This document shows, in pieces, positions 3,872 through 13,513 of a stretch of DNA of 26,414 bases. The notes under the pieces are model-generated. The model was given only the letters and a program-made list of their open reading frames with translations. It ran no database searches and was not told the DNA's origin. This stretch comes from a virus. Lineage: Duplodnaviria > Heunggongvirae > Uroviricota > Caudoviricetes. The DNA is taken from the IMG/VR virus record IMGVR_UViG_2537561991_000013, positions 1 to 26,414 of that record; one strand, 5' to 3'. The number at the start of each line of letters is the position of its first letter. The stretch's first letter is position 1. The position numbers and the translations under genes are program-made.

Positions 3872-3936
3872 TGATCTTACCCAGCAATAGTGGACACGCG
3901 GCTAAGTGAGTAAACTCTCAGTCAGAGGTGACTCAC

Positions 3937-4236
3937 ATGACAAAAACAGTATCAACCAGTAAAAAACCCCGTAAACAGCATTCGCCTGAATTTCGCAGTG
4001 AAGCCCTGAAGCTTGCTGAACGCATCGGTGTTACTGCCGCAGCCCGTGAACTCAGCCTGTATGAATCACAGCTCTACAACTGGCGCAGTAAACAGCAAAA
4101 TCAGCAGACGTCTTCTGAACGTGAACTGGAGATGTCTACCGAGATTGCACGTCTCAAACGCCAGCTGGCAGAACGGGATGAAGAGCTGGCTATCCTCCAA
4201 AAGGCCGCGACATACTTCGCGAAGCGCCTGAAATGA
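3937..4236 (+). CDS. insE: IS3 OrfA (transposase N-terminal / HTH component)
   Basis: [32 protein letters not shown]... from ATG 3937 with AGAGGTG RBS; the ORF track starts at an upstream GTG at 3928. Confidence 0.85.
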
Positions 4237-5099
4237 AGTATGTCTTTATTGAAAAACATCAGGCTGAGTTCAGCATCAAAGCAATGTGCCGCGTGCTCCG
4301 GGTGGCCCGCAGCGGCTGGTATACGTGGTGTCAGCGGCGGACAAGGATAAGCACGCGTCAGCAGTTCCGCCAACACTGCGACAGCGTTGTCCTCGCGGCT
4401 TTTACCCGGTCAAAACAGCGTTACGGTGCCCCACGCCTGACGGATGAACTGCGTGCTCAGGGTTACCCCTTTAACGTAAAAACCGTGGCGGCAAGCCTGC
4501 GCCGTCAGGGACTGAGGGCAAAGGCCTCCCGGAAGTTCAGCCCGGTCAGCTACCGCGCACACGGCCTGCCTGTGTCAGAAAATCTGTTGGAGCAGGATTT
4601 TTACGCCAGTGGCCCGAACCAGAAGTGGGCAGGAGACATCACGTACTTACGTACAGATGAAGGCTGGCTGTATCTGGCAGTGGTCATTGACCTGTGGTCA
4701 CGTGCCGTTATTGGCTGGTCAATGTCGCCACGCATGACGGCGCAACTGGCCTGCGATGCCCTGCAGATGGCGCTGTGGCGGCGTAAGAGGCCCCGGAACG
4801 TTATCGTTCACACGGACCGTGGAGGCCAGTACTGTTCAGCAGATTATCAGGCGCAACTGAAGCGGCATAATCTGCGTGGAAGTATGAGCGCAAAAGGTTG
4901 CTGCTACGATAATGCCTGCGTGGAAAGCTTCTTTCATTCGCTGAAAGTGGAATGTATCCATGGAGAACACTTTATCAGCCGGGAAATAATGCGGGCAACG
5001 GTGTTTAATTATATCGAATGTGATTACAATCGGTGGCGGCGGCACAGTTGGTGTGGCGGCCTCAGTCCGGAACAATTTGAAAACAAGAACCTCGCTTAG
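4233..5099 (+). CDS. insF: IS3 OrfB (DDE transposase catalytic component; normally made as an OrfAB fusion by -1 frameshifting)
   Basis: 288-aa ORF recognised as IS3 InsF; overlaps the orfA stop in ATGA arrangement. Confidence 0.85.
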
Positions 5100-5250
5100 G
5101 CCTGTGTCCATATTACGTGGGTAGGATCACGCAGGGGTCGGCCCATTTGAGCTTCAGATAGGAACGTTTGAATTCCTTTCACAAAATACATCACATACTG
5201 AACGTGAACATTCCCACTTTGATCTTAAGGCCAAAAAGTATGCAGGACTA

Positions 5251-6969
5251 ATGATTTTTAGGGATAGCTTGAGAGTATTACCTTATGGTCGAGTAGATAA
5301 TGATTTCTTCCAGATAGAAGAAAGACGTTCATGGAATGCAGGGCGATATTATTGGTCTAATAGAAGGATTTTTGGTTATATTGGAATTACTCAATCCAGT
5401 AATAAAGAGCTGAAAGATAAGTCGGGGAGAGAGGGATTCATAAGAAACCAGGCTGCAAGAGAACTGAAAACTATTATATCTAATTTGTTAACTGAACTTG
5501 CTGATAGATTTTTTGGTTCACGTTCTGATGACCGTAAAGAGCTTTTAGAACAAGTTAAGCGTGAAAAAGAGTTAAGAAAATCTGCTCAACAACAAGCTCG
5601 AAAATCAACACAAAAAAGTTTTTCAGAAGCTTTGAAGAATCAGACACCAGTTCTTGATGCTTCCTTGGAGGCTGTTAAAAGGCTGAAAACTAAGCTTGAT
5701 AAAACTGATGGTTCGTTAGATTTAAACTATCTTAAAATTATAGACAGTGATCTTACAAACTTAGATGCGTTGCGCAGTGAAATTAAAACGCCTATCAAAC
5801 CTCCAAAACTTGGAATGTATGAAGAGAAATATAGAGACTACAGAGATAAATTTAATGAGTTCTCTGCGTATATTCTACAAATGAAGTTAGCAATTAATAA
5901 ACTTGATTCTGAATTAAATAAACTTGAGCCTTCATTGTCAGCGAAAAATCACCTTGAAAAAAATCAAGGTATTATTAATTCTAAACTAACTAAGTTTAAT
6001 AACACGATAGAGGAGAAGATACATTCTCTTTTAAAAAAATGGGCCGATGAAATAAAGGTTGATCGAAGTGATTATTATGCTAAAACTATATCAGTTGTTG
6101 ATTCAATAGATAATGATTCACAAATTGAAAATGTGTTTAATTTGCTCGATAGTTTATATGTTGAGTCAGTTGATACCCTAACTTTCAAATATCAATCAAT
6201 AATAAAAGGTCTCGATAGATTATTTGAAGGTATAAACTTAGATTCAGCATTCTCATTATCTGAAGAAGAACGCTCATATTTTGAAGAAAAAGCTAAAAGT
6301 TTAAACGCGCTTGCACAGTTAGGTATTAGTGTTGAGATAATATCTCATGAACTTGAAGAAATGGATTCTATGGTAACCAGAGGACTAAACTCTCTTCCTA
6401 CTTCTGTAAAAGAACACCCTGGTTTTTCATTGGCGTTAAATGCTCACAGATCGCTTACTCAACAAATACGTTTCTTATCACCTTTGAAAATATCAGGTTA
6501 TCAATCCAGGCAGAGAATAACTGGAAAAAATATCATGGATTATGTCCTGAAGTTCTTTGGGGAGCGTTTCGAACGGCAACGAATAACTATTGAATTTAGT
6601 GAAGAGTTTAAGCAAATCGCAATAACAGATATACCATCAAGGATCTATCCTGTTTTTACTAATATTATCAACAATGCAATGTATTGGGTCAGTCTGTCAA
6701 ATAATAGGCTCATAAAGATTGGTTTTGTGAATTCTTTGGTTATCATAGCAAATTCTGGTCCGGCAATTGATACCGATGATATCCCGCGACTATTTGAACT
6801 ATTTTATAGCAAAAGAGCAAATGGACATGGGGTAGGTCTGTATCTATGTCGAGAAAACCTTGCTGTTGCACATCATAAAATATGGTATTCAGAACCTGAT
6901 GAAGGCGATAACTATTTAATAAAAGATGACGCTAATTTTGTGATCCAGTTCAATGGAGTGGAGTTCTAA
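5251..6969 (+). CDS. cytoplasmic histidine-kinase-like protein: coiled-coil-rich N-region, DHp-like H-box and HATPase_c catalytic domain; frame is open upstream to the IS3 end (5130), so the true 5-prime end is probably deleted
   Basis: C-terminal motifs: H-box-like VEIISHELEEMDSMV, N-box YPVFTNIINNAMYW, G1-like IIANSGPAIDTDD, F-box RLFELFY, G2 GHGVGLYLCRENLA. No hydrophobic TM segment. Visibly AT-rich; weak SD before the ATG at 5251; no in-frame stop between 5130 and 5251. Confidence 0.7.
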   Translation: MIFRDSLRVLPYGRVDNDFFQIEERRSWNAGRYYWSNRRIFGYIGITQSSNKELKDKSGREGFIRNQAARELKTIISNLLTELADRFFGSRSDDRKELLEQVKREKELRKSAQQQARKSTQKSFSEALKNQTPVLDASLEAVKRLKTKLDKTDGSLDLNYLKIIDSDLTNLDALRSEIKTPIKPPKLGMYEEKYRDYRDKFNEFSAYILQMKLAINKLDSELNKLEPSLSAKNHLEKNQGIINSKLTKFNNTIEEKIHSLLKKWADEIKVDRSDYYAKTISVVDSIDNDSQIENVFNLLDSLYVESVDTLTFKYQSIIKGLDRLFEGINLDSAFSLSEEERSYFEEKAKSLNALAQLGISVEIISHELEEMDSMVTRGLNSLPTSVKEHPGFSLALNAHRSLTQQIRFLSPLKISGYQSRQRITGKNIMDYVLKFFGERFERQRITIEFSEEFKQIAITDIPSRIYPVFTNIINNAMYWVSLSNNRLIKIGFVNSLVIIANSGPAIDTDDIPRLFELFYSKRANGHGVGLYLCRENLAVAHHKIWYSEPDEGDNYLIKDDANFVIQFNGVEF

Positions 6970-6970
6970 T

Positions 6971-8719
6971 ATGACAGTGGCAAATTATAATTCTCTTGTC
7001 CAGAAAACTTTCTGCGAAAATGCAATTCGTTCCGTTGTCATGATTGATGACGATTTTCTGACGTATTCTGAATCAATCAGGGCGTTGAATAACGAAGTTG
7101 ATTTAGACTACAACAAAATTGACTCATCTAAACGAGCCGCTACTCTTGAGAGCTTTTTTCAATCTAAAAATATGATTTGTGATGTTGACAATGGTTCTGT
7201 TAATTTCGATGTGGATCGGATTAGAAAATCAGATCTTATTATTGTAGATTATCATCTTGATAATAATGCACCTGATAAAACACTTAAACTATTACAAGAT
7301 TTGAAAGACTCCGATCATTTAAATATGATTGTAATATATACTAGAGAGAATTTAGAAACGGTTTGGATGCAGATATCATCGACTCTCAAAGGTGCTCTGG
7401 ATATCAACAGCTTGATCATTGACTACGATAATGAAGATGTCCAAAGTTATTGGGAAGACGTTGTATTACCGAACTTAAATGATAATGGTAATAAAGCTCT
7501 CACAAGAGATGAAACAATAGCCTATATTAAAGACAGTAAGCCTTGTAGAAGAATTAAAAGATTAATACATGATGATGCTGTGTTGGAGGAACAAAAGGAT
7601 AAAAACTTCATTGCAAAAATGATTGCAGAATATGCTGTGTCTAGAAATGCAATTATTTCTAGCAACACATCTGGCAATGTCATTCGGGGTGATGAAAGCG
7701 GAGTAAAATGGATTCAATGTGGTAATATCTTTGTCTCCCTATTTCATAAGGTTCAAGATGATCATGAAAACGATGGAGATAGGATTTGGCAAACTCTCAA
7801 TGATTCTCTCATTGAATGGAAACCATCTTATTATCAGTTAATAAAATCTGAAATTCAGAATGCAATCGAAGCTGAGGCTTTATCTTTTGTAAATCATTTG
7901 GCTAACGATCATTACGGTCAAGCTGCGTGGTTAAATGAGATATTAAAATCAGACTCGCCTGATATTAGATGTAGAAATATTGACTTTGTATTTGGTAATT
8001 TATCAGAAGAGCTTTATCAAAGACTTAAAAATAATAATACGCTGGATGAATTTATCAAAAGTGTTTTTGATAGCTATTCAAATGAATACGCTAACAGCGG
8101 AGTTGCTGCATTGCTCCAATATTGCTCTTCAAAAATGGATCTGCCATCAAATAATGATACTTATCACGAAATGTATCATGCTTTAAATATGAATTTGTCT
8201 TCAAAGAATTTTGAAGATGGTCATATTTCTACTGGCACTATTTTCTTTGATACAGAGTCGAACAAATGGTATTTATGTGTATCTGCGGCATGTGATTTGG
8301 TTCCTACTCAGGGTAACGACCCTCACCATGTAAGATTAAGTCCGCACAGGCTCATTAAAGTTCTGGAGCTTTTTAACGCCAGTCAGAGTAAAGCATTGCC
8401 ATTTGCTGAACATTCGAAATATATATATGTAATGCATAAAAATCAAAGAAAATATCTCTCTATTTTCGAAGGGGATAAAACGCTTCCTGTTGTTGATTAT
8501 ATGGTGGTGTTGAATCATGGAACAACAGTTGATGGCGAAGAAAAAAATATTATTTCTGCCGTGTTTTTAAGTAATATGGATGGCAACGTGCAAAATGTTC
8601 CTGTCCGACTCAAACTTAAATCTCAACTGAGAACTGGTTATGCAGAAAGATATCAGGCTATAGCGTCTCAGTATAGCTCAAGGATTGGTGTGGATTATGT
8701 ATCAATGATGCTACCATAA
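6971..8719 (+). CDS. receiver (REC)-like N-terminal domain fused to an unassigned ~430-aa C-terminal domain
   Basis: ATG at 6971 is 1 nt after the kinase stop, with GGAGTGGAG as SD (the ORF track starts at 6953). N-terminus has REC-like beta1 VVMIDDD, beta3 DLIIVDYHLD, beta4 MIVIYT; the rest has no motif I can assign. AT-rich like the upstream gene. Confidence 0.55.
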   Translation: MTVANYNSLVQKTFCENAIRSVVMIDDDFLTYSESIRALNNEVDLDYNKIDSSKRAATLESFFQSKNMICDVDNGSVNFDVDRIRKSDLIIVDYHLDNNAPDKTLKLLQDLKDSDHLNMIVIYTRENLETVWMQISSTLKGALDINSLIIDYDNEDVQSYWEDVVLPNLNDNGNKALTRDETIAYIKDSKPCRRIKRLIHDDAVLEEQKDKNFIAKMIAEYAVSRNAIISSNTSGNVIRGDESGVKWIQCGNIFVSLFHKVQDDHENDGDRIWQTLNDSLIEWKPSYYQLIKSEIQNAIEAEALSFVNHLANDHYGQAAWLNEILKSDSPDIRCRNIDFVFGNLSEELYQRLKNNNTLDEFIKSVFDSYSNEYANSGVAALLQYCSSKMDLPSNNDTYHEMYHALNMNLSSKNFEDGHISTGTIFFDTESNKWYLCVSAACDLVPTQGNDPHHVRLSPHRLIKVLELFNASQSKALPFAEHSKYIYVMHKNQRKYLSIFEGDKTLPVVDYMVVLNHGTTVDGEEKNIISAVFLSNMDGNVQNVPVRLKLKSQLRTGYAERYQAIASQYSSRIGVDYVSMMLP

Positions 8720-8789
8720 TTATTATATTTTAGGCGTGGTGATTTTTTTCGCCATGCCTATTTTATATTTATCATCACAATGATGTTGT

Positions 8790-9101
8790 TTATTTTTGTT
8801 TAAGTCTTCTAAGCTTCATGCATTCTAATGAGAATAATAATAGAGTTGTGCTGTATATAAAGCCAGAGTTAGTTAATAACTTTAAATTTAATGCTTCAGG
8901 ATTTTCACTGAGAAAGTGAAAGGCATAAACTAAGTATACAGCTAAAGTAGCCGTTCCAATTGTTGGTCCAATATCGCCTTGATCATGAGGTTCAAGGTTT
9001 ACATTGAACTTGAAGATTAGCCATTCAAATCCCCAAGTAAAAAAAACAACTAATATCATGGCTGCGAATAATTTCGCGATGTTATCTGCTGATGGATTCA
9101 T
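8790..9101 (-). CDS. small hydrophobic protein (about 3 predicted TM segments), function unknown
   Basis: 103-aa ORF with three hydrophobic stretches (LFAAMILVVFFTWGF..., IGTATLAVYLVYAFHFL, FIYSTTLLLFSL); convergent with the kinase/receiver operon, AT-rich. Confidence 0.4.
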   Translation of the reverse strand: MNPSADNIAKLFAAMILVVFFTWGFEWLIFKFNVNLEPHDQGDIGPTIGTATLAVYLVYAFHFLSENPEALNLKLLTNSGFIYSTTLLLFSLECMKLRRLKQK

Positions 9102-9243
9102 CAGAACAGATTGTTTCTGAAAAAATTCACAAAGTGAGAGTCCGAAAAAAATAAAAAAAGTGGTCTGGAACTAAATTTTTCAAAAACTTTGAATAGGGTT
9201 TCCATTTTCTTTACCTTCAGGATTATATTAGCTATTCTGATAC

Positions 9244-10473
9244 TTAGGCTACCAGAGCATTTGATCTTTGAGCTTGAACGTAATCACTCCACCATTGCAT
9301 CAAACTCTGTCGCTCTATCAGATATTCTGCACGATTGTATGCTGCGATAATTTCATCTTTTTTCGAGTGGGCAAGCGCTGCCTCAAGAACTTCAGCTCTG
9401 AATTTACCAGACTCCTCTGCCGCTGTTCGTGCAATAGAACGCATACCGTGAGCTACAAGCTCGCCTCCGAACCCCATTCGGATGATAGCTGCGTTGGCTG
9501 TTTGTTCATGCATATGATTAAGAGGCGCTTTTATGCTGGGGAAAACCCATTCTCTATGCCCACTTATTGATTTCATTAATTCAAGGATGCGCAAAGCTTC
9601 TTTACTCAAAGGAACTTTGTGAAGCTTTTTCATTTTCATGAAATCAGCAGGAATGTTCCAAATGCTGTTGGTTGTATCAATATCAGACCACCTTGCGCGA
9701 ACGGCTTCACCCGGACGAACCCATGTCAACAATTGCCATTCAATTAGCATACGTGTTTCCAACCGGATTGACGCATTCGTCAAAGATTCCATAAACCTTG
9801 GCAATTCGCTTGGGGGAAGGGCAGGCATATTTTGCTTTTTTGGTTTACTGAATCTTTGACCAAGGTTGTCAGCCGGGTTGAACTCAATAAGTTCTTCAGT
9901 AGCTGCCCACCGGAAGATTTCATTCAGACGTGAAATGATACGGCGTAGAGTTTCCAATACGCCTCGTTGCTCAATAGGATCAAGGTGTTGTTTTAAGAGC
10001 TTAGGTCGGATCTCATTGATAGGGACATTACCCAGACCGGGAAAGACATTTCTCTCTAAGCTGCGCCAGATGTCTGCTGCATGGTCTTGTGAGATACCTG
10101 ATGTCTTTACCTTCTCATCTAACCATTTCCGCGCTACGGCTTGGAGAGTGTGCTCAGTAGCACTCTTTAATGCCTTCGCCTTATCGTTGTTATGGATTTG
10201 GGGATCAACACCATTTGCCAGAAAGGAGAGATATTCATCACGTAAGGCTCTGGCTCTTGCAAGGGTAAGGTGAGGATATGTCCCAAGGCTCATTTTGGTT
10301 CTTTTCTTGCTCACTGGTACTGCATACCTGAAATACCAATTTTTCTTGCCTCCTTTCGCCAAAGGAGCGATTCGTAGAATCAGACCATCACCGTCAAACA
10401 AGTTGATTTCTTTATCGGCTGGCTTGGTGCTTTTGATTTCAGTGTCAGTGAGCTTCTTAGCGATTTTTGCCAT
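9244..10473 (-). CDS. P4-type tyrosine integrase (CP4-57 IntA-like)
   Basis: ORF 9244..10515; likely start at ATG 10473 (MAKIAKKLTDTEIK...) with GAGGG RBS; C-terminal tyrosine-recombinase motifs (HGMRS...LAH...AAYNRAEY); sits 165 bp from the ssrA 3-prime fragment in the same orientation, as ssrA-intA does in K-12. Confidence 0.85.
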   Translation of the reverse strand: MAKIAKKLTDTEIKSTKPADKEINLFDGDGLILRIAPLAKGGKKNWYFRYAVPVSKKRTKMSLGTYPHLTLARARALRDEYLSFLANGVDPQIHNNDKAKALKSATEHTLQAVARKWLDEKVKTSGISQDHAADIWRSLERNVFPGLGNVPINEIRPKLLKQHLDPIEQRGVLETLRRIISRLNEIFRWAATEELIEFNPADNLGQRFSKPKKQNMPALPPSELPRFMESLTNASIRLETRMLIEWQLLTWVRPGEAVRARWSDIDTTNSIWNIPADFMKMKKLHKVPLSKEALRILELMKSISGHREWVFPSIKAPLNHMHEQTANAAIIRMGFGGELVAHGMRSIARTAAEESGKFRAEVLEAALAHSKKDEIIAAYNRAEYLIERQSLMQWWSDYVQAQRSNALVA

Positions 10474-10575
10474 TTTGGGACCCTCGGTTTTTGGACCCTT
10501 CTTAGTGGGTCCCATTCAGGGTGCCATAACTCGTAGTTCTCAGCAATTCTCACTGGACGACAATAGACGTAAAAA

Positions 10576-10608
10576 AGCCCGCAGAGCTTGTGCTGTGTGG
10601 GCTTAGTA
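10576..10608 (-). terminator. weak hairpin with U-tract between the att fragment and the integrase
   Basis: AGCCCGCA...TGTGGGCT inverted repeat (one mismatch) flanked by an A6 run on the plus strand (U-run on the minus strand). Confidence 0.3.
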
Positions 10609-10638
10609 GACTTCATTGAACTTCAAACAACTAAAAAG

Positions 10639-10674
10639 TGGTGGAGCTGGCGGGAGTTGAACCCGTATCCGAAA
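10639..10674 (-). other. partial copy of the 3-prime end of ssrA (tmRNA): att-type junction, not a functional tmRNA gene
   Basis: TGGTGGAGCTGGCGGGAGTTGAACCCGtaTCCGAAA is the reverse complement of the tmRNA 3-prime end (...GGACGCGGGTTCAACTCCCGCCAGCTCCACCA) with 2 mismatches; the match stops after ~36 nt and the rest of ssrA is absent. Confidence 0.75.
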
Positions 10675-10868
10675 AATTCTTAACCAATTGAATATTAATG
10701 ATTTTTCTAATTTAAAATACCTCACGTGCATTTTACGTGCATATTGTAGTACCTCTAACGTCCTGATTCTGTCCAACATTTTGAAGTGTTTAGGCGCCAC
10801 TGGGGCGGTGATTAGCGCTGTTTTGTGCTGTTCATAGCACTTCAAGACTATTCAATTCAGAGCAATCG

Positions 10869-10897
10869 TTGAAGAATTACCCGTAAGGTAATATCAT
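10869..10897 (+). promoter_or_regulatory. sigma-70-like promoter candidate (TTGAAG - 17 bp - TATCAT)
   Basis: -35 TTGAAG at 10869..10874 and -10 TATCAT at 10892..10897 with 17-bp spacing, upstream of the hairpin at 10932 and the ORF at 11009. Confidence 0.35.
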
Positions 10898-10931
10898 ACT
10901 ATTTAGGTAACTGCGGTTATCACCATCAAGG

Positions 10932-10967
10932 GCCACTGATGACGCTGTTATCATCAGTGGCTTTTTG
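10932..10967 (+). terminator. strong intrinsic-terminator-like hairpin (11-bp perfect stem GCCACTGATGA / TCATCAGTGGC, 8-nt loop, TTTTT tail)
   Basis: Perfect inverted repeat 10932..10942 / 10951..10961 followed by TTTTTG; about 40 nt upstream of the RBS of the 11009 ORF, so it may be an attenuator or the end of a ~60-nt RNA. Confidence 0.5.
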
Positions 10968-10970
10968 TAC

Positions 10971-10992
10971 CTTCACTGCACAGCCAGTGAAG
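10971..10992 (+). promoter_or_regulatory. 8-bp perfect inverted repeat (CTTCACTG-cacagc-CAGTGAAG) just upstream of the RBS of the 11009 ORF
   Basis: Inverted repeat ends 4 nt before GAGGAG (10997..11002); candidate operator or translational control hairpin. Confidence 0.35.
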
Positions 10993-11008
10993 TGTTGAGG
11001 AGACTAGC

Positions 11009-11350
11009 ATGAGAACAGTAGCGAGAAGATCGATACAGACGATTGAGCGTCGGACTCAACTCGTCAGTTCTTTTGTTGACTCAAACACAGCAAACGAGTT
11101 CTTCGTGAGAAGACTGAGTGATCGTGTCTCCCCGGCACGTCAGCTGTTTATTGTGACATTGAACAATGAGGTTCGTGACGGTGACGTGATCCCGTTCGCT
11201 GAGATCGCCATGAACAAAGAAAAATTGCGCTATGTTGTGAAGCCAGCAGATCAGTATCCTCAGTATGTAAGCAGTAATCTGCTGAAGAAAATTGAAGCGG
11301 CAATTGCTCTATACATGCAGAAGAACTACAGGGAAATTAACTACCATTAA
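11009..11350 (+). CDS. hypothetical protein (113 aa), first gene of a two-gene cassette at the int-proximal end of the prophage
   Basis: ORF with GAGGAG RBS at 6-nt spacing; no recognisable motif; followed 11 bp later by a second ORF. Confidence 0.5.
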   Translation: MRTVARRSIQTIERRTQLVSSFVDSNTANEFFVRRLSDRVSPARQLFIVTLNNEVRDGDVIPFAEIAMNKEKLRYVVKPADQYPQYVSSNLLKKIEAAIALYMQKNYREINYH

Positions 11351-11361
11351 AAGGTTGCTGA

Positions 11362-12129
11362 ATGGCTCCTGCGTTAATACCTTCATATAACAAGGACTTG
11401 AACATTACGCCATTTGGCGAAAAACGTCTTATTGAGTCATTCTATTTTTTCACTGCCGAGGCTGGCTTACTGAGGGCTGATGAGTACATTGTCAGTTCTG
11501 GTGAGTTTCAGTACTACTTGGATGTGTATCAACTGGGATGTTCCACCGACGACTTTTTTTTAGACTATGGCAGTGACCTTCTTGATTCGAAGGTTCCAAT
11601 GCAGGATCTGGTCAATACCCTCTTGGGTCTTGATATGGTAGACGATAACAAAACGATAAGAATAGGTCGTATACAGTTCAACGACTTTAATTTTATCGAA
11701 GAGAACGGTCAGATGATGACCGGAAAGCAAGTGAAAAGCGCTGTTATCGCACAGGATTTCCAATCAGCAGGTTTGGCGCGTGAGATCTATAAAATGCTTG
11801 CGCGAAAGCATGAGTTTCTCATCTGCGATAACATTCAAAGTATTGCCGGTGGTGCTCTTTGGGCTAGTAGCATCATTCGAATTGCCGAGGTACGGATCTA
11901 CAATTCACGCACGAAGAAATTTATGGACATACTTGGTCCAGGTGCGCGTGGCGTTTCAGGTACTTTGCCATGGAGTGCGAATGATCTGTCTGTAGATGAG
12001 ATTGTTCGCTGGGGTCGTGCGTATGATGATGAAAACTGTTGTCGTCACATTGTACATGTTATCTGTAAGGACCGACTCATTGACGATCAATTTCATGATT
12101 ATGTTTCGATAGGTGGCGCGACAGAATAA
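11362..12129 (+). CDS. hypothetical protein (255 aa), second gene of the cassette
   Basis: ORF closely following the 113-aa gene; no recognisable motif; ends at a bidirectional terminator shared with the integrase. Confidence 0.5.
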   Translation: MAPALIPSYNKDLNITPFGEKRLIESFYFFTAEAGLLRADEYIVSSGEFQYYLDVYQLGCSTDDFFLDYGSDLLDSKVPMQDLVNTLLGLDMVDDNKTIRIGRIQFNDFNFIEENGQMMTGKQVKSAVIAQDFQSAGLAREIYKMLARKHEFLICDNIQSIAGGALWASSIIRIAEVRIYNSRTKKFMDILGPGARGVSGTLPWSANDLSVDEIVRWGRAYDDENCCRHIVHVICKDRLIDDQFHDYVSIGGATE

Positions 12130-12141
12130 CCATCAAAAAGA

Positions 12142-12164
12142 CCCGGCATTTGCCGGGTTTTTTC
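12142..12164. terminator. bidirectional intrinsic terminator (CCCGGC-ATTT-GCCGGG flanked by A-run and T-run)
   Basis: 6-bp GC stem with AAAAAG upstream and TTTTTTC downstream; sits between the convergent 11362..12129 gene and the integrase. Confidence 0.6.
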
Positions 12165-12170
12165 TTCAAA

Positions 12171-13349
12171 TCACTTCTTCATTCCAGATTCCATTGCGGT
12201 TTTCCCGTCGTATTCAGCCAGGTATTTACCGTAATTGCGGAACAGCATTTCCGGCCCCTTATGCCCCATCTGCCCGGCAAGCCAGAAAAGGTTTACACCC
12301 TGGCTAATGTGTCTGGTGGCGAATGTGTGGCGCGTCTGGTACGGGTTACGGTAGCGCACACCAGCTTTTTTCAGGGTCGGCACCCATGCTTTTTTACGGA
12401 TAGCGTCGGCGTTCGTCCAGGGATCTCCCGTTTTCGGATCGCTGAATATGAACTCACTTTTCATAAAGGTGTATTGCTTCTGCGCCTGCAGGGCCGCCAG
12501 CGCCTCACTGTTCAGCTCCACCTTACGGGTACCGGCTTTTGTCTTGGTGCCTTTAAGTACCCCTACGACACTGGCCGCCTGTATGTGCGCTGTATTACCT
12601 ATAAAGTCGATATCGGTCCAACGTAATGCGCATAGCTCAGAGCTGCGTAGCCCTGTATTGAAGGCGAAGCGGAACAGATTCTGCCATTCCTGATACTTGC
12701 AGTGCTGATATATGGCACTGGTTTCCGCAGGCGCAAACGGATCAACTTCGTAATCGTCGGCGTTCGGTTTACTGTCGACCACGTGATACCGGCTGGCGCT
12801 GACAAGAGTTACCGGGTTAATAGTCAACAGGCCATCAGTTACAGCCTCATCAATGGCGCTGCGCAGAAATGACAGGTTATTCCTGATTGTTTTCAGCTTA
12901 GTTTTTCGGCTGGCTATCCAATTTTTTAGTACCGCAGGCGTCAATTCTGTTACATGTAGTTTATGTAGTTCTGATAGTGCTGATAGACATTTTTCGTAAC
13001 CGCCAATGGTTGACGGCGACAGATTGCGGTTCATGCAAATTTTCAGGTATTCATCAAGATAGGACTTAATATTTTTGGTTTTCTTTACTACACCGAATAA
13101 CTCCAGTTTTTTGGAACTGGGGAAATATTTCGCATATTCAAACGTTCCGCTGGCGATCTGATTTTGTATCTCCCCTAGCAGGCGCTCAGCATATTTAATA
13201 CCACGTGTATTTGCCTCAAGCCGAGACAGGGGCTCCCTGCAAAGAACCCCTTTATATGTGAAAGTGATAACTAGTGTTGAAGCAGTTTTATGCTTACGAA
13301 TAGTTACTCCTCTTGGCAGAGATAATAATCCTTGTTCTTTCTTGCCCAT
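12171..13349 (-). CDS. lambdoid-phage tyrosine integrase (not lambda Int)
   Basis: 392-aa ORF from ATG 13349; C-terminal catalytic motifs RHTFATRH...GHKGPEMLFRNYGKY; an overlapping excisionase-like gene lies upstream. Confidence 0.85.
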   Translation of the reverse strand: MGKKEQGLLSLPRGVTIRKHKTASTLVITFTYKGVLCREPLSRLEANTRGIKYAERLLGEIQNQIASGTFEYAKYFPSSKKLELFGVVKKTKNIKSYLDEYLKICMNRNLSPSTIGGYEKCLSALSELHKLHVTELTPAVLKNWIASRKTKLKTIRNNLSFLRSAIDEAVTDGLLTINPVTLVSASRYHVVDSKPNADDYEVDPFAPAETSAIYQHCKYQEWQNLFRFAFNTGLRSSELCALRWTDIDFIGNTAHIQAASVVGVLKGTKTKAGTRKVELNSEALAALQAQKQYTFMKSEFIFSDPKTGDPWTNADAIRKKAWVPTLKKAGVRYRNPYQTRHTFATRHISQGVNLFWLAGQMGHKGPEMLFRNYGKYLAEYDGKTAMESGMKK

Positions 13350-13513
13350 TTTGAAACCTCTATTAAGTCGACCCAGCGTTCTTTAACTCCGTCGACTTTT
13401 AATACATGAACCCCTTCTTTCCATATTCCTCTTTGTATCCGTTTGTTAACGGCATCAACCGTTTCTCCCGCGTCGCGGCAGTAGGTTGATATAGGCACGC
13501 AATCCAGCCCCAT
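13304..13513 (-). CDS. excisionase-like small DNA-binding protein
   Basis: 69-aa ORF overlapping the integrase start by 46 bp (typical xis-int arrangement); basic, with W/K-rich C-terminus. Confidence 0.5.
   Translation of the reverse strand: MGLDCVPISTYCRDAGETVDAVNKRIQRGIWKEGVHVLKVDGVKERWVDLIEVSKWARKNKDYYLCQEE

Follow-up and report, generated by a model that had tools for sequence, protein, structure and literature searches.

Response regulator-like and histidine kinase-like proteins encoded by linked genes have been defined as the Pfam families Response_reg_2 (PF19192) as well as HEF_HK (PF19191) by Bellieny-Rabelo, Pretorius & Moleleki (2021, Genome Biol Evol, PMC8011034). The retrieved passages of this purely computational study, which has E. 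coli members in its data set, give a linkage of 91.6% between the two genes, an excess of C5 methylases and Vsr genes in the vicinity and, in 83% of the members, a kinase with an N-terminal HATPase_c_3 domain of paraMORC type, and the authors speculate on a regulatory tie to restriction-modification (R-M) systems. Here we analyzed one such gene, located at 6971-8719 of a 26,414-nucleotide stretch (IMG/VR virus record IMGVR_UViG_2537561991_000013, positions 1 to 26,414; this whole stretch is called the window in the following), which is E. coli chromosome adjoining the gab operon. As the original prediction had stated, the gene encodes a response regulator-like protein (RR) of 582 aa starting with the ATG at 6971, one base past the stop codon of the kinase gene. 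This is the start used by RefSeq and by the homologue alignment; the program-made list of open reading frames (ORFs) begins RR at an upstream ATG (6953-8719, 588 aa). The N-terminus of RR matches Response_reg_2 (109.1 bits, cut-off 27, residues 19-175) and the neighbouring kinase matches HEF_HK (26.1 bits, cut-off 24.1, E 1.2e-5) and HATPase_c (44.4 bits, E 2.5e-11), showing that the pair belongs to the published family, whose linkage and methylase/Vsr picture we could reproduce. Unlike the family norm, the window copy has neither the HATPase_c_3 half of the kinase nor a methylase. The retrieved passages define the receiver and the DHp domain only and are silent on three features described below, an output module of ~300 aa, an insert in the receiver and the lysine K260; the output module itself is not represented in Pfam, and none of its relatives has a solved structure. 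We estimate a probability of about 50% for the reading that RR, a member of the Response_reg_2 family, is a phosphorylation-gated effector wherever its gene cluster is intact, and that the system in the window is dead.

To describe the intact cluster we compared the non-redundant intact loci with enough flanking sequence (n=14), originating from Citrobacter, Serratia, Aeromonas, Acinetobacter, Oceanicoccus, Parashewanella, Chthoniobacterales, Granulicella and Acidobacteriota. In 14 of 14 a C5-type methylase (PF00145), a paraMORC-histidine kinase of ~985 aa (HATPase_c_3 + HEF_HK + HATPase_c) and an RR of ~590 aa are encoded by adjacent genes, with RR being the third and last gene of this triad. 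The intact kinase combines the GHKL domain of paraMORCs with a coiled coil and with DHp and CA domains; the GHKL domain was found as HATPase_c_3 in L003, L004, L008, L030 and L032, and the H, N and G2 boxes are kept from Gammaproteobacteria to Acidobacteriota and Verrucomicrobia. When all flanking ORFs were clustered against each other, no gene beyond the three, for instance one for a nuclease, proved to be conserved; the clustering gave only antisense shadow ORFs and an occasional Vsr. In the five contexts with annotated neighbours the triad lies amid genes of mobile elements, including transfer genes of an integrative and conjugative element, Tn7 cargo and an integrase island. These gene comparisons support RR as the sole candidate for the output of a module whose three genes are strictly conserved. 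The original prediction had taken the part following the receiver as the likely output if the operon is a phosphorelay-controlled module, which agrees with the intact triads; the local operon is not a working phosphorelay, its kinase being truncated and its methylase absent.

Among systems named on experimental grounds, our searches of the literature for the same composition returned only the distant Ambrosia. This system (bioRxiv 10.1101/2025.09.30.679545) has been validated against phage, its receiver mutant D60A is inactive, and its five genes encode an XRE protein (AbrR), an N6-methyltransferase (AbrA), a HATPase/histidine kinase (AbrB), a receiver protein of 209 aa (AbrC) and an HNH nuclease (AbrD). 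As in the triad, a methylase, a protein with GHKL and histidine kinase parts and a receiver protein are found in one cluster. When the first 399 residues of AbrB were compared with the N-terminus of the intact family kinases, two collinear segments were aligned (33% over 120 aa, E 5e-11; 30% over 76 aa, E 6e-7), and judged from this alignment the triad kinase is distantly homologous to AbrB in its N-terminal GHKL and middle regions. The first of the two segments is deleted in the kinase copy of the window. In contrast to RR, AbrC has no output module and reaches a probability of only 0.2% against the RR family; furthermore, Ambrosia encodes a separate HNH nuclease and an XRE regulator whereas the triad has no HNH gene, and its methylase is of the N6-adenine and not of the C5-cytosine type. 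Supplementary Table S1 of the same preprint lists the DefenseFinder profile 'RM_Type_II__Type_II_REases' as matching AbrB and an HEF_HK-bearing kinase of the same cluster, which suggests that such GHKL kinases have been catalogued as putative restriction enzymes from context alone.

ParaMORCs have long been predicted to act in R-M systems (Iyer 2008, PMC2292703), and VcSduA (paraMORC3 or Shedu type I-D), in which a GHKL ATPase is fused to a DUF4263 PD-(D/E)xK nuclease, is a validated defence protein (PMC2292703; PMC12137116). It shares with the triad a paraMORC-type GHKL module in an R-M or defence setting and the proposed control of an effector. Its nuclease sits directly on the ATPase, whereas the triad interposes a DHp/CA kinase and a receiver and ends in an output without a recognisable nuclease fold. 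Detocs, reportedly described by Rousset and co-workers in 2023, is said to consist of the kinase DtcA, the buffer receiver DtcB and DtcC, a receiver with a purine nucleoside phosphorylase (PNP) effector. Its logic is similar in that a cytoplasmic kinase senses infection and phosphorylates an effector-fused receiver, but the triad has no PNP or nucleosidase domain and no second receiver gene as buffer, its sensor is a paraMORC GHKL domain, its methylase is obligatory and its output domain is invariable. PADLOC 2.0.0 gave no model for the kinase or RR at E < 0.001, the presence of Detocs models in this release being unconfirmed. Set beside these validated systems, the triad is a variant of the methylase-linked GHKL-kinase/receiver defence modules.

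The boundary between receiver and output was deduced from an AlphaFold2 model of the full RR (30-sequence alignment, mean predicted local distance difference test (pLDDT) 83.9, predicted template modelling score (pTM) 0.78) and from residue conservation. In the model residues 21-140 form beta1-alpha4 of a receiver, followed by five helices in 145-226, with the next strand not before 238, by strands 247-250 and 253-259 and by a helix at 268-283. The remainder comprises an all-alpha region (287-410), a beta-rich region (411-553), a last helix (557-567) and a tail (568-582). Eight residues are invariant in 80 distant relatives, namely D93, T124, K260, P285, N406, G422, C441 and R571. Among them D93, T124 and K260 represent the classical Asp-Thr-Lys set of receivers, K260 being located immediately after strand 253-259, and the phospho-acceptor-site residues D26/D27, D93, T124 and K260 are kept across the family. 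Thus the (beta-alpha)5 fold, the acidic pair, the Asp, the Thr and the Lys of a receiver are all present. When the C-terminal 407 residues were modelled alone, strands 247-250 and 253-259 became less confident and the pTM was 0.55. Because of the D93/T124/K260 set, the strand positions and this loss of confidence we assigned residues 141-285 to the receiver, which is complete yet split into a core (19-140), an insert of ~100 aa and beta5/alpha5 with Lys260. According to the model, residues 141-243 would be a variable helical insert within the receiver, which residues 244-285 would complete; the insert shows the lowest conservation of the protein (0.23) and is also the most diverged stretch among Enterobacterales alleles. 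The canonical Response_reg profile (PF00072) did not match the window RR and matched only 3 of the 80 relatives weakly, and as constructs with the insert deleted were still not matched this sequence test is uninformative.

As the receiver claims residues 141-285, the output module comprises ~300 aa (286-582; window 7826-8716). The ~430-aa domain of the original prediction is indeed unassigned and conserved, but about a third of it, residues ~141-285, was placed in the receiver by the mapping of conserved residues, which left N406, G422, C441 and R571 as the invariant residues of the module. The RR gene can be divided as follows:

6971-8719, plus strand: RR-like ORF, 582 aa.
6971-7390, plus strand: receiver core beta1-alpha4, RR residues 1-140, with the acidic pair D26/D27, the phospho-acceptor D93 (7247-7249) and T124 (7340-7342).
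7391-7699, plus strand: variable acidic helical insert in the receiver, RR residues ~141-243, drawn from the AlphaFold2 model and conservation.
7700-7825, plus strand: receiver beta5/alpha5, RR residues 244-285, with the invariant K260 (7748-7750) and P285.
7826-8200, plus strand: acidic all-alpha sub-domain of the output module, RR residues 286-410, with the motifs SEIQN (293-297), QAAWL (317-321) and YHALN (402-406).
8201-8671, plus strand: SH3-like beta-barrel sub-domain, RR residues 411-567, with the invariant G422 and C441 and also C436, D442, Y557 and R560.
8672-8719, plus strand: conserved C-terminal tail (SRIGVDY), RR residues 568-582, plus stop codon.

The family-specific output module combines three parts, a helical bundle of acidic character, a beta-barrel of SH3-like type and the conserved tail with RIGVD. 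The bundle (286-410) contains the invariant N406 and gave no structural or sequence match. The barrel (411-567) is roughly neutral and carries the motifs TGT and CVSAACDxVPxQ as well as SQLRxGYAER in the last helix, and the tail (568-582) is the most highly conserved segment of RR (0.57), with R571 invariant, G573 conserved to 98% and D575 to 95%. A pLDDT < 50 was obtained only in the two most conserved loops, 441-448 and 569-573; as they are strongly conserved but modelled with such low confidence, this suggests flexible functional loops. In the reading favoured below the output module packs against the receiver, the pTM being 0.78 for the whole protein versus 0.55 for the module by itself. 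With a profile of the C-terminal region we found 601 clusters (50% identity) at E <= 0.001 and 224 at E <= 1e-30, so by sequence comparison this region is conserved well past chance level. Its architecture is fixed, as nearly all of the 150 best profile matches begin at residue ~170-300 of a protein of ~560-680 aa, and longer family members have no additional Pfam domain. A search with the receiver only returned fragments alone and no receiver with a different output, and neither known effector domains fused to this receiver nor the module outside this architecture were found when sought. In the sequences surveyed, the module is always paired with this receiver and joined to nothing else. Stand-alone or short forms (P0091, P0383, P0384) turned out to be frameshifted genes or pseudogenes among those examined.

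Beyond Response_reg_2, RR had no match in Pfam, NCBIfam or PADLOC, the two PHROGs families of unknown function that match it are both built from this very protein, and 80 diverse relatives (20-36% identity) showed no recurrent Pfam family other than Response_reg_2. A sequence-profile search of the PDB with the C-terminal region had a best E of 0.16. The structure search suggested along with the original prediction, performed with Foldseek against the PDB, gave no match with E < 0.05. No helix-turn-helix (HTH), winged HTH, LytTR, AAA+ or other DNA-binding output was recognised in RR and the 80 relatives; confident homology to a known DNA-binding output domain, which would have made RR an ordinary response regulator, was therefore not detected. 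The prediction had also reported no recognisable nuclease, phospholipase D (PLD)-type HxK or transmembrane signature, with which our motif scan of RR agrees: there is no transmembrane segment (Kyte-Doolittle maximum 0.96), and PLD HxK, Walker A, CX5R, CxxC and GIY-YIG are all absent. Loose regular-expression matches to PD-(D/E)xK and HNH were dismissed as their residues are not conserved. Neither RR nor the kinase contains a known nuclease fold (PD-(D/E)xK, HNH, GIY-YIG, PLD) or a conserved motif thereof. The possible new effector fold of the prediction is not supported: the module contains an SH3-like barrel, and no catalytic activity could be assigned to it.

The sequences show the architecture, conserved residues of the phosphorelay, an obligatory triad and the lack of any other effector or DNA-binding output, whereas sensing, activation and the nature of the activity are inferred. 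The paraMORC half of the kinase would sense invading or unmodified DNA, and its DHp/CA half would autophosphorylate on the histidine of the HELE motif and pass the phosphate to D93. Phosphorylation of D93 would free the output module from the receiver, and the freed module would act as the effector on nucleic acid or another essential target. The chemistry would probably involve the constellation of N406, C441, R571 and D575 together with the two conserved flexible loops, and by analogy the module would stand in for AbrD, the separate HNH nuclease of Ambrosia. By elimination and analogy the phosphorylation-gated effector appears as the best-supported reading. In its favour, the divergence of the RR cassette in Acinetobacter (see below) is a conflict-type signature, RR and kinase genes are often disrupted, including by insertion sequences in E. 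coli, no HTH or other DNA-binding output is present, the kinase shows homology to AbrB, and a paraMORC3-nuclease, VcSduA, has been validated. A tentative extension, which we regard as possible and rather doubtful, is that the ~300-aa module is an unrecognised phosphorylation-activated nuclease or toxin fold with C441, N406, R571 and D575 as a new active site. It would be the restriction arm of a 'signal-transducing' R-M system, in which a MORC-like clamp reads DNA methylation or foreignness and reports through a His-Asp relay.

Several points weigh against an effector. The role is deduced by elimination and by analogy with a distant system whose receiver AbrC is not detectably related to RR, and the Ambrosia authors themselves prefer a transcriptional role for AbrC (bioRxiv 10.1101/2025.09.30.679545). 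The receiver is never fused to a known effector, so a domain-swapping argument as for Detocs is unusable. RR is acidic overall and its barrel only neutral, which is atypical of non-specific nucleic-acid binders, and no catalytic fold or motif was found in RR. Moreover, RR is intact in ~560 E. coli genomes next to a sensorless kinase core and without a cognate methylase; therefore it can be neither a constitutive toxin nor a sequence-specific restriction enzyme on its own. The evidence for the family is wholly computational.

An alternative reading is that the module is a phosphorylation-controlled DNA-binding or regulatory domain, so that phosphorylated RR would switch transcription of the methylase or of an unlinked gene as proposed for AbrC. 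The Ambrosia authors report infection-induced expression and credit the two-component module with its control, and Bellieny-Rabelo et al. speculate on a regulatory tie to R-M. Nucleic-acid binding is common among SH3-like barrels (Tudor, KOW, L19), which fits this reading as well as the missing catalytic motif does. We consider it unlikely, as RR is strongly acidic, the triad offers no effector gene to control besides the methylase, and the polar residues N406, C441, R571 and D575 in flexible loops resemble an active site or a specific interface. The module might also be an adaptor free of own activity that docks on the paraMORC kinase, on the methylase or on a protein of host or phage, e.g. 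via the RIGVD tail, and thereby gates the MORC-like clamp or the methylase. The two top-conserved motifs lie in low-confidence and probably flexible segments, the tail is the most conserved segment, the architecture is fixed with domains never being swapped, and in Acinetobacter RR diverges far faster than kinase and methylase, as expected of a surface under antagonistic co-evolution. But the triad would then have no effector, and an invariant set of Cys, Asn, Arg and Asp is unusual in a pure docking module, which makes an adaptor quite improbable.

The least credible family-level reading starts from the barrel. Judged from the model, the beta-domain is an SH3-like barrel with a weak likeness to MazF/CcdB, and a membership in the MazF/CcdB superfamily is not established; other SH3-like barrels score as high. 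A divergent toxin of the MazF/Kid/CcdB superfamily, acting as endoribonuclease or gyrase poison and inhibited by the receiver until phosphorylated, would lead to abortive infection; strand order and C-terminal helix of the model are compatible with it, and HEPN RNases fused to paraMORCs in R-M neighbourhoods provide a precedent for an RNase output. Foldseek gave no match, however, hhalign of the barrel or the whole module against an alignment of 112 MazF sequences reached a probability of 0.1%, and PemK_toxin (PF02452) was not matched in the Pfam scans of the 80 members. In MazF the catalytic residues are an Arg ahead of beta2 and a Thr/Ser following beta3, with which the conserved G422, C436, C441, R560, R571 and D575 of RR do not line up. 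RR thus differs from MazF, Kid and CcdB in having no profile similarity and other conserved residues, and its barrel is part of a 582-aa multidomain protein.

Compatible with any of these family-level readings, and concerning the local copy alone, is the view that the gene in the window is the inert relic of a decayed integrative element with no present function in E. coli, which we regard as quite likely. The 572-aa kinase ORF aligns with residues 418-988 of an intact homologue of 988 aa (73% identity), and its frame is open and homologous upstream to 5131, corresponding to about residue 378. The ~377 N-terminal residues including the paraMORC GHKL domain are therefore missing, and instead of a methylase only an IS3 element and an amylase pseudogene are located upstream. 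As the methylase and the sensor half of the kinase are gone, the window system is non-functional, with an orphan RR that is probably never activated. In GenBank AJ304858.2 (prophage CP-1639 with its integration site) the same stretch carries the label 'remnant integrative element', with 'histidin kinase-like protein' for its first gene. The remnant is near-clonal, as 561 of the 5426 complete E. coli genomes (~10%) contain it at an identity of at least 99%, and other lineages carry an IS3-family insertion at codon ~453 of RR, as in E. coli 2015C-3163 (L029 4702-6013), where it splits the gene; the truncated 453-aa product (P0014) accounts for 1605 member sequences versus 1966 for the full-length protein. 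Against an inert relic stands that the RR in the window is full-length with every family-invariant residue retained and that the kinase core (DHp + CA) is intact too, with His366 of the H box at 6346-6348 (SHELEE) and conserved N and G2 boxes, so that residual signalling would be possible. The genes surrounding RR are:

3872-5129, plus strand: IS3 element at the truncation point of the kinase gene, with the left end TGATCTTACCCAG at 3872 and the right end ...GGGTAGGATCA finishing at 5129.
3928-4236 and 4233-5099, plus strand: IS3 transposase ORFs of the ORF list.
5131-6969, plus strand: 5'-truncated HEF_HK-type histidine-kinase-like gene, which keeps the coiled coil, DHp and HATPase_c without the paraMORC GHKL domain.
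5251-6969, plus strand: kinase-like ORF of the ORF list, 572 aa.
8790-9101, minus strand: small hydrophobic hypothetical ORF of the island remnant, in RefSeq a longer version of 417 nt.
9244-10515, minus strand: tyrosine integrase of the remnant integrative element.

The truncation might have been ascribed to the IS3 element, but AJ304858.2 (L033 2725-2745) has the same kinase breakpoint without IS3, 15 unrelated bp (ATCCTTAGAGATGCG) replacing the 1258-bp element; IS3 is thus not necessarily the cause and this explanation was dropped. The annotated complete genome that comes closest to the window (99.9% identity) has the gene order gabP-gabT-gabD-lhgO-glaH, amylase pseudogene, IS3, 'ATP-binding protein', 'response regulator receiver domain' protein, small hypothetical, tyrosine integrase and ssrA. 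No tRNA, tmRNA or Rfam family was detected across the window; related genomes have the element at ssrA. The small ORF at 8790-9101 has phrog_6556 (unknown function) as its only match and none in Pfam, and as it was not found beside the triad in other loci it lies outside the conserved module. Past the integrase (10516-13400) the DNA of the window is other island or prophage material, and at least 80% of 8720-13400 is covered in just 1 of 5426 complete E. coli genomes. A contig of 5603 bp deposited as a Bacteroidales metagenome-assembled genome (L010) encodes an RR 100% identical to that of E. coli next to the same truncated kinase and is probably E. coli contamination or mis-binning.

Within the family, the RR gene of Acinetobacter (L004 10001-11785 compared with L017, L018 and L019) is a hypervariable cassette with sharp edges. 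Nucleotide identity is mostly 85-98% in the flanking C-terminal half of the kinase gene and methylase gene (down to 76% in parts of the L017 methylase) and drops to 45-74% over precisely the RR gene; the corresponding protein identities are 81-91% for the methylase, 86-92% for the kinase half and 49-54% for RR. Diversifying selection on the gene or its replacement as a cassette, at an interface of host and parasite, would be consistent with this pattern. The divergence in Enterobacterales is mild and centred on the receiver insert (window 7370-7670). Of the RR genes, those of L007, L024, L030 and L032 are split and that of L031 is reduced to a fragment of 165 aa, kinase and methylase being split there too, and the kinase is split in L002; judged from these sequences, frameshifts and splits are frequent in RR and kinase genes of loci that are otherwise intact. 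Vsr genes were found beside the triad in L024 (10350-10898), L026 (9796-10200), L027 (3454-3867), L031 (13026-13493) and L032 (9857-10279), which are loci of Acidobacteriota, Verrucomicrobia and Alphaproteobacteria, and none was detected in the examined Enterobacterales or Acinetobacter loci. The Asp of the kinase G1 box (window 6751-6765) is Asn (ANSGP/ANTGP) in the aligned gammaproteobacterial members including the window, L022 excepted, and canonical in Acidobacteriota and Verrucomicrobia (GDSGP, ADTGP, SDNGP), with which L022 (GNTGP) was reported; the Asn might have an effect on ATP binding of the kinase.

In summary, the genes in the window are an inactivated remnant and should not be taken for a working two-component system of E. 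coli. The output module that RR shares with its intact relatives is present in 601 clusters, and the examined loci span Gammaproteobacteria, Acidobacteriota and Verrucomicrobia. As the module is widespread, located outside Pfam and without a solved relative, knowing what it does would allow many genes to be annotated and might contribute a new effector chemistry. If the triad is a defence system, a His-Asp phosphorelay would link a MORC-type DNA sensor to an effector in bacterial immunity, and self-marking by a Dcm-type methylase would be tied to a signalling cascade and not to a directly coupled nuclease.

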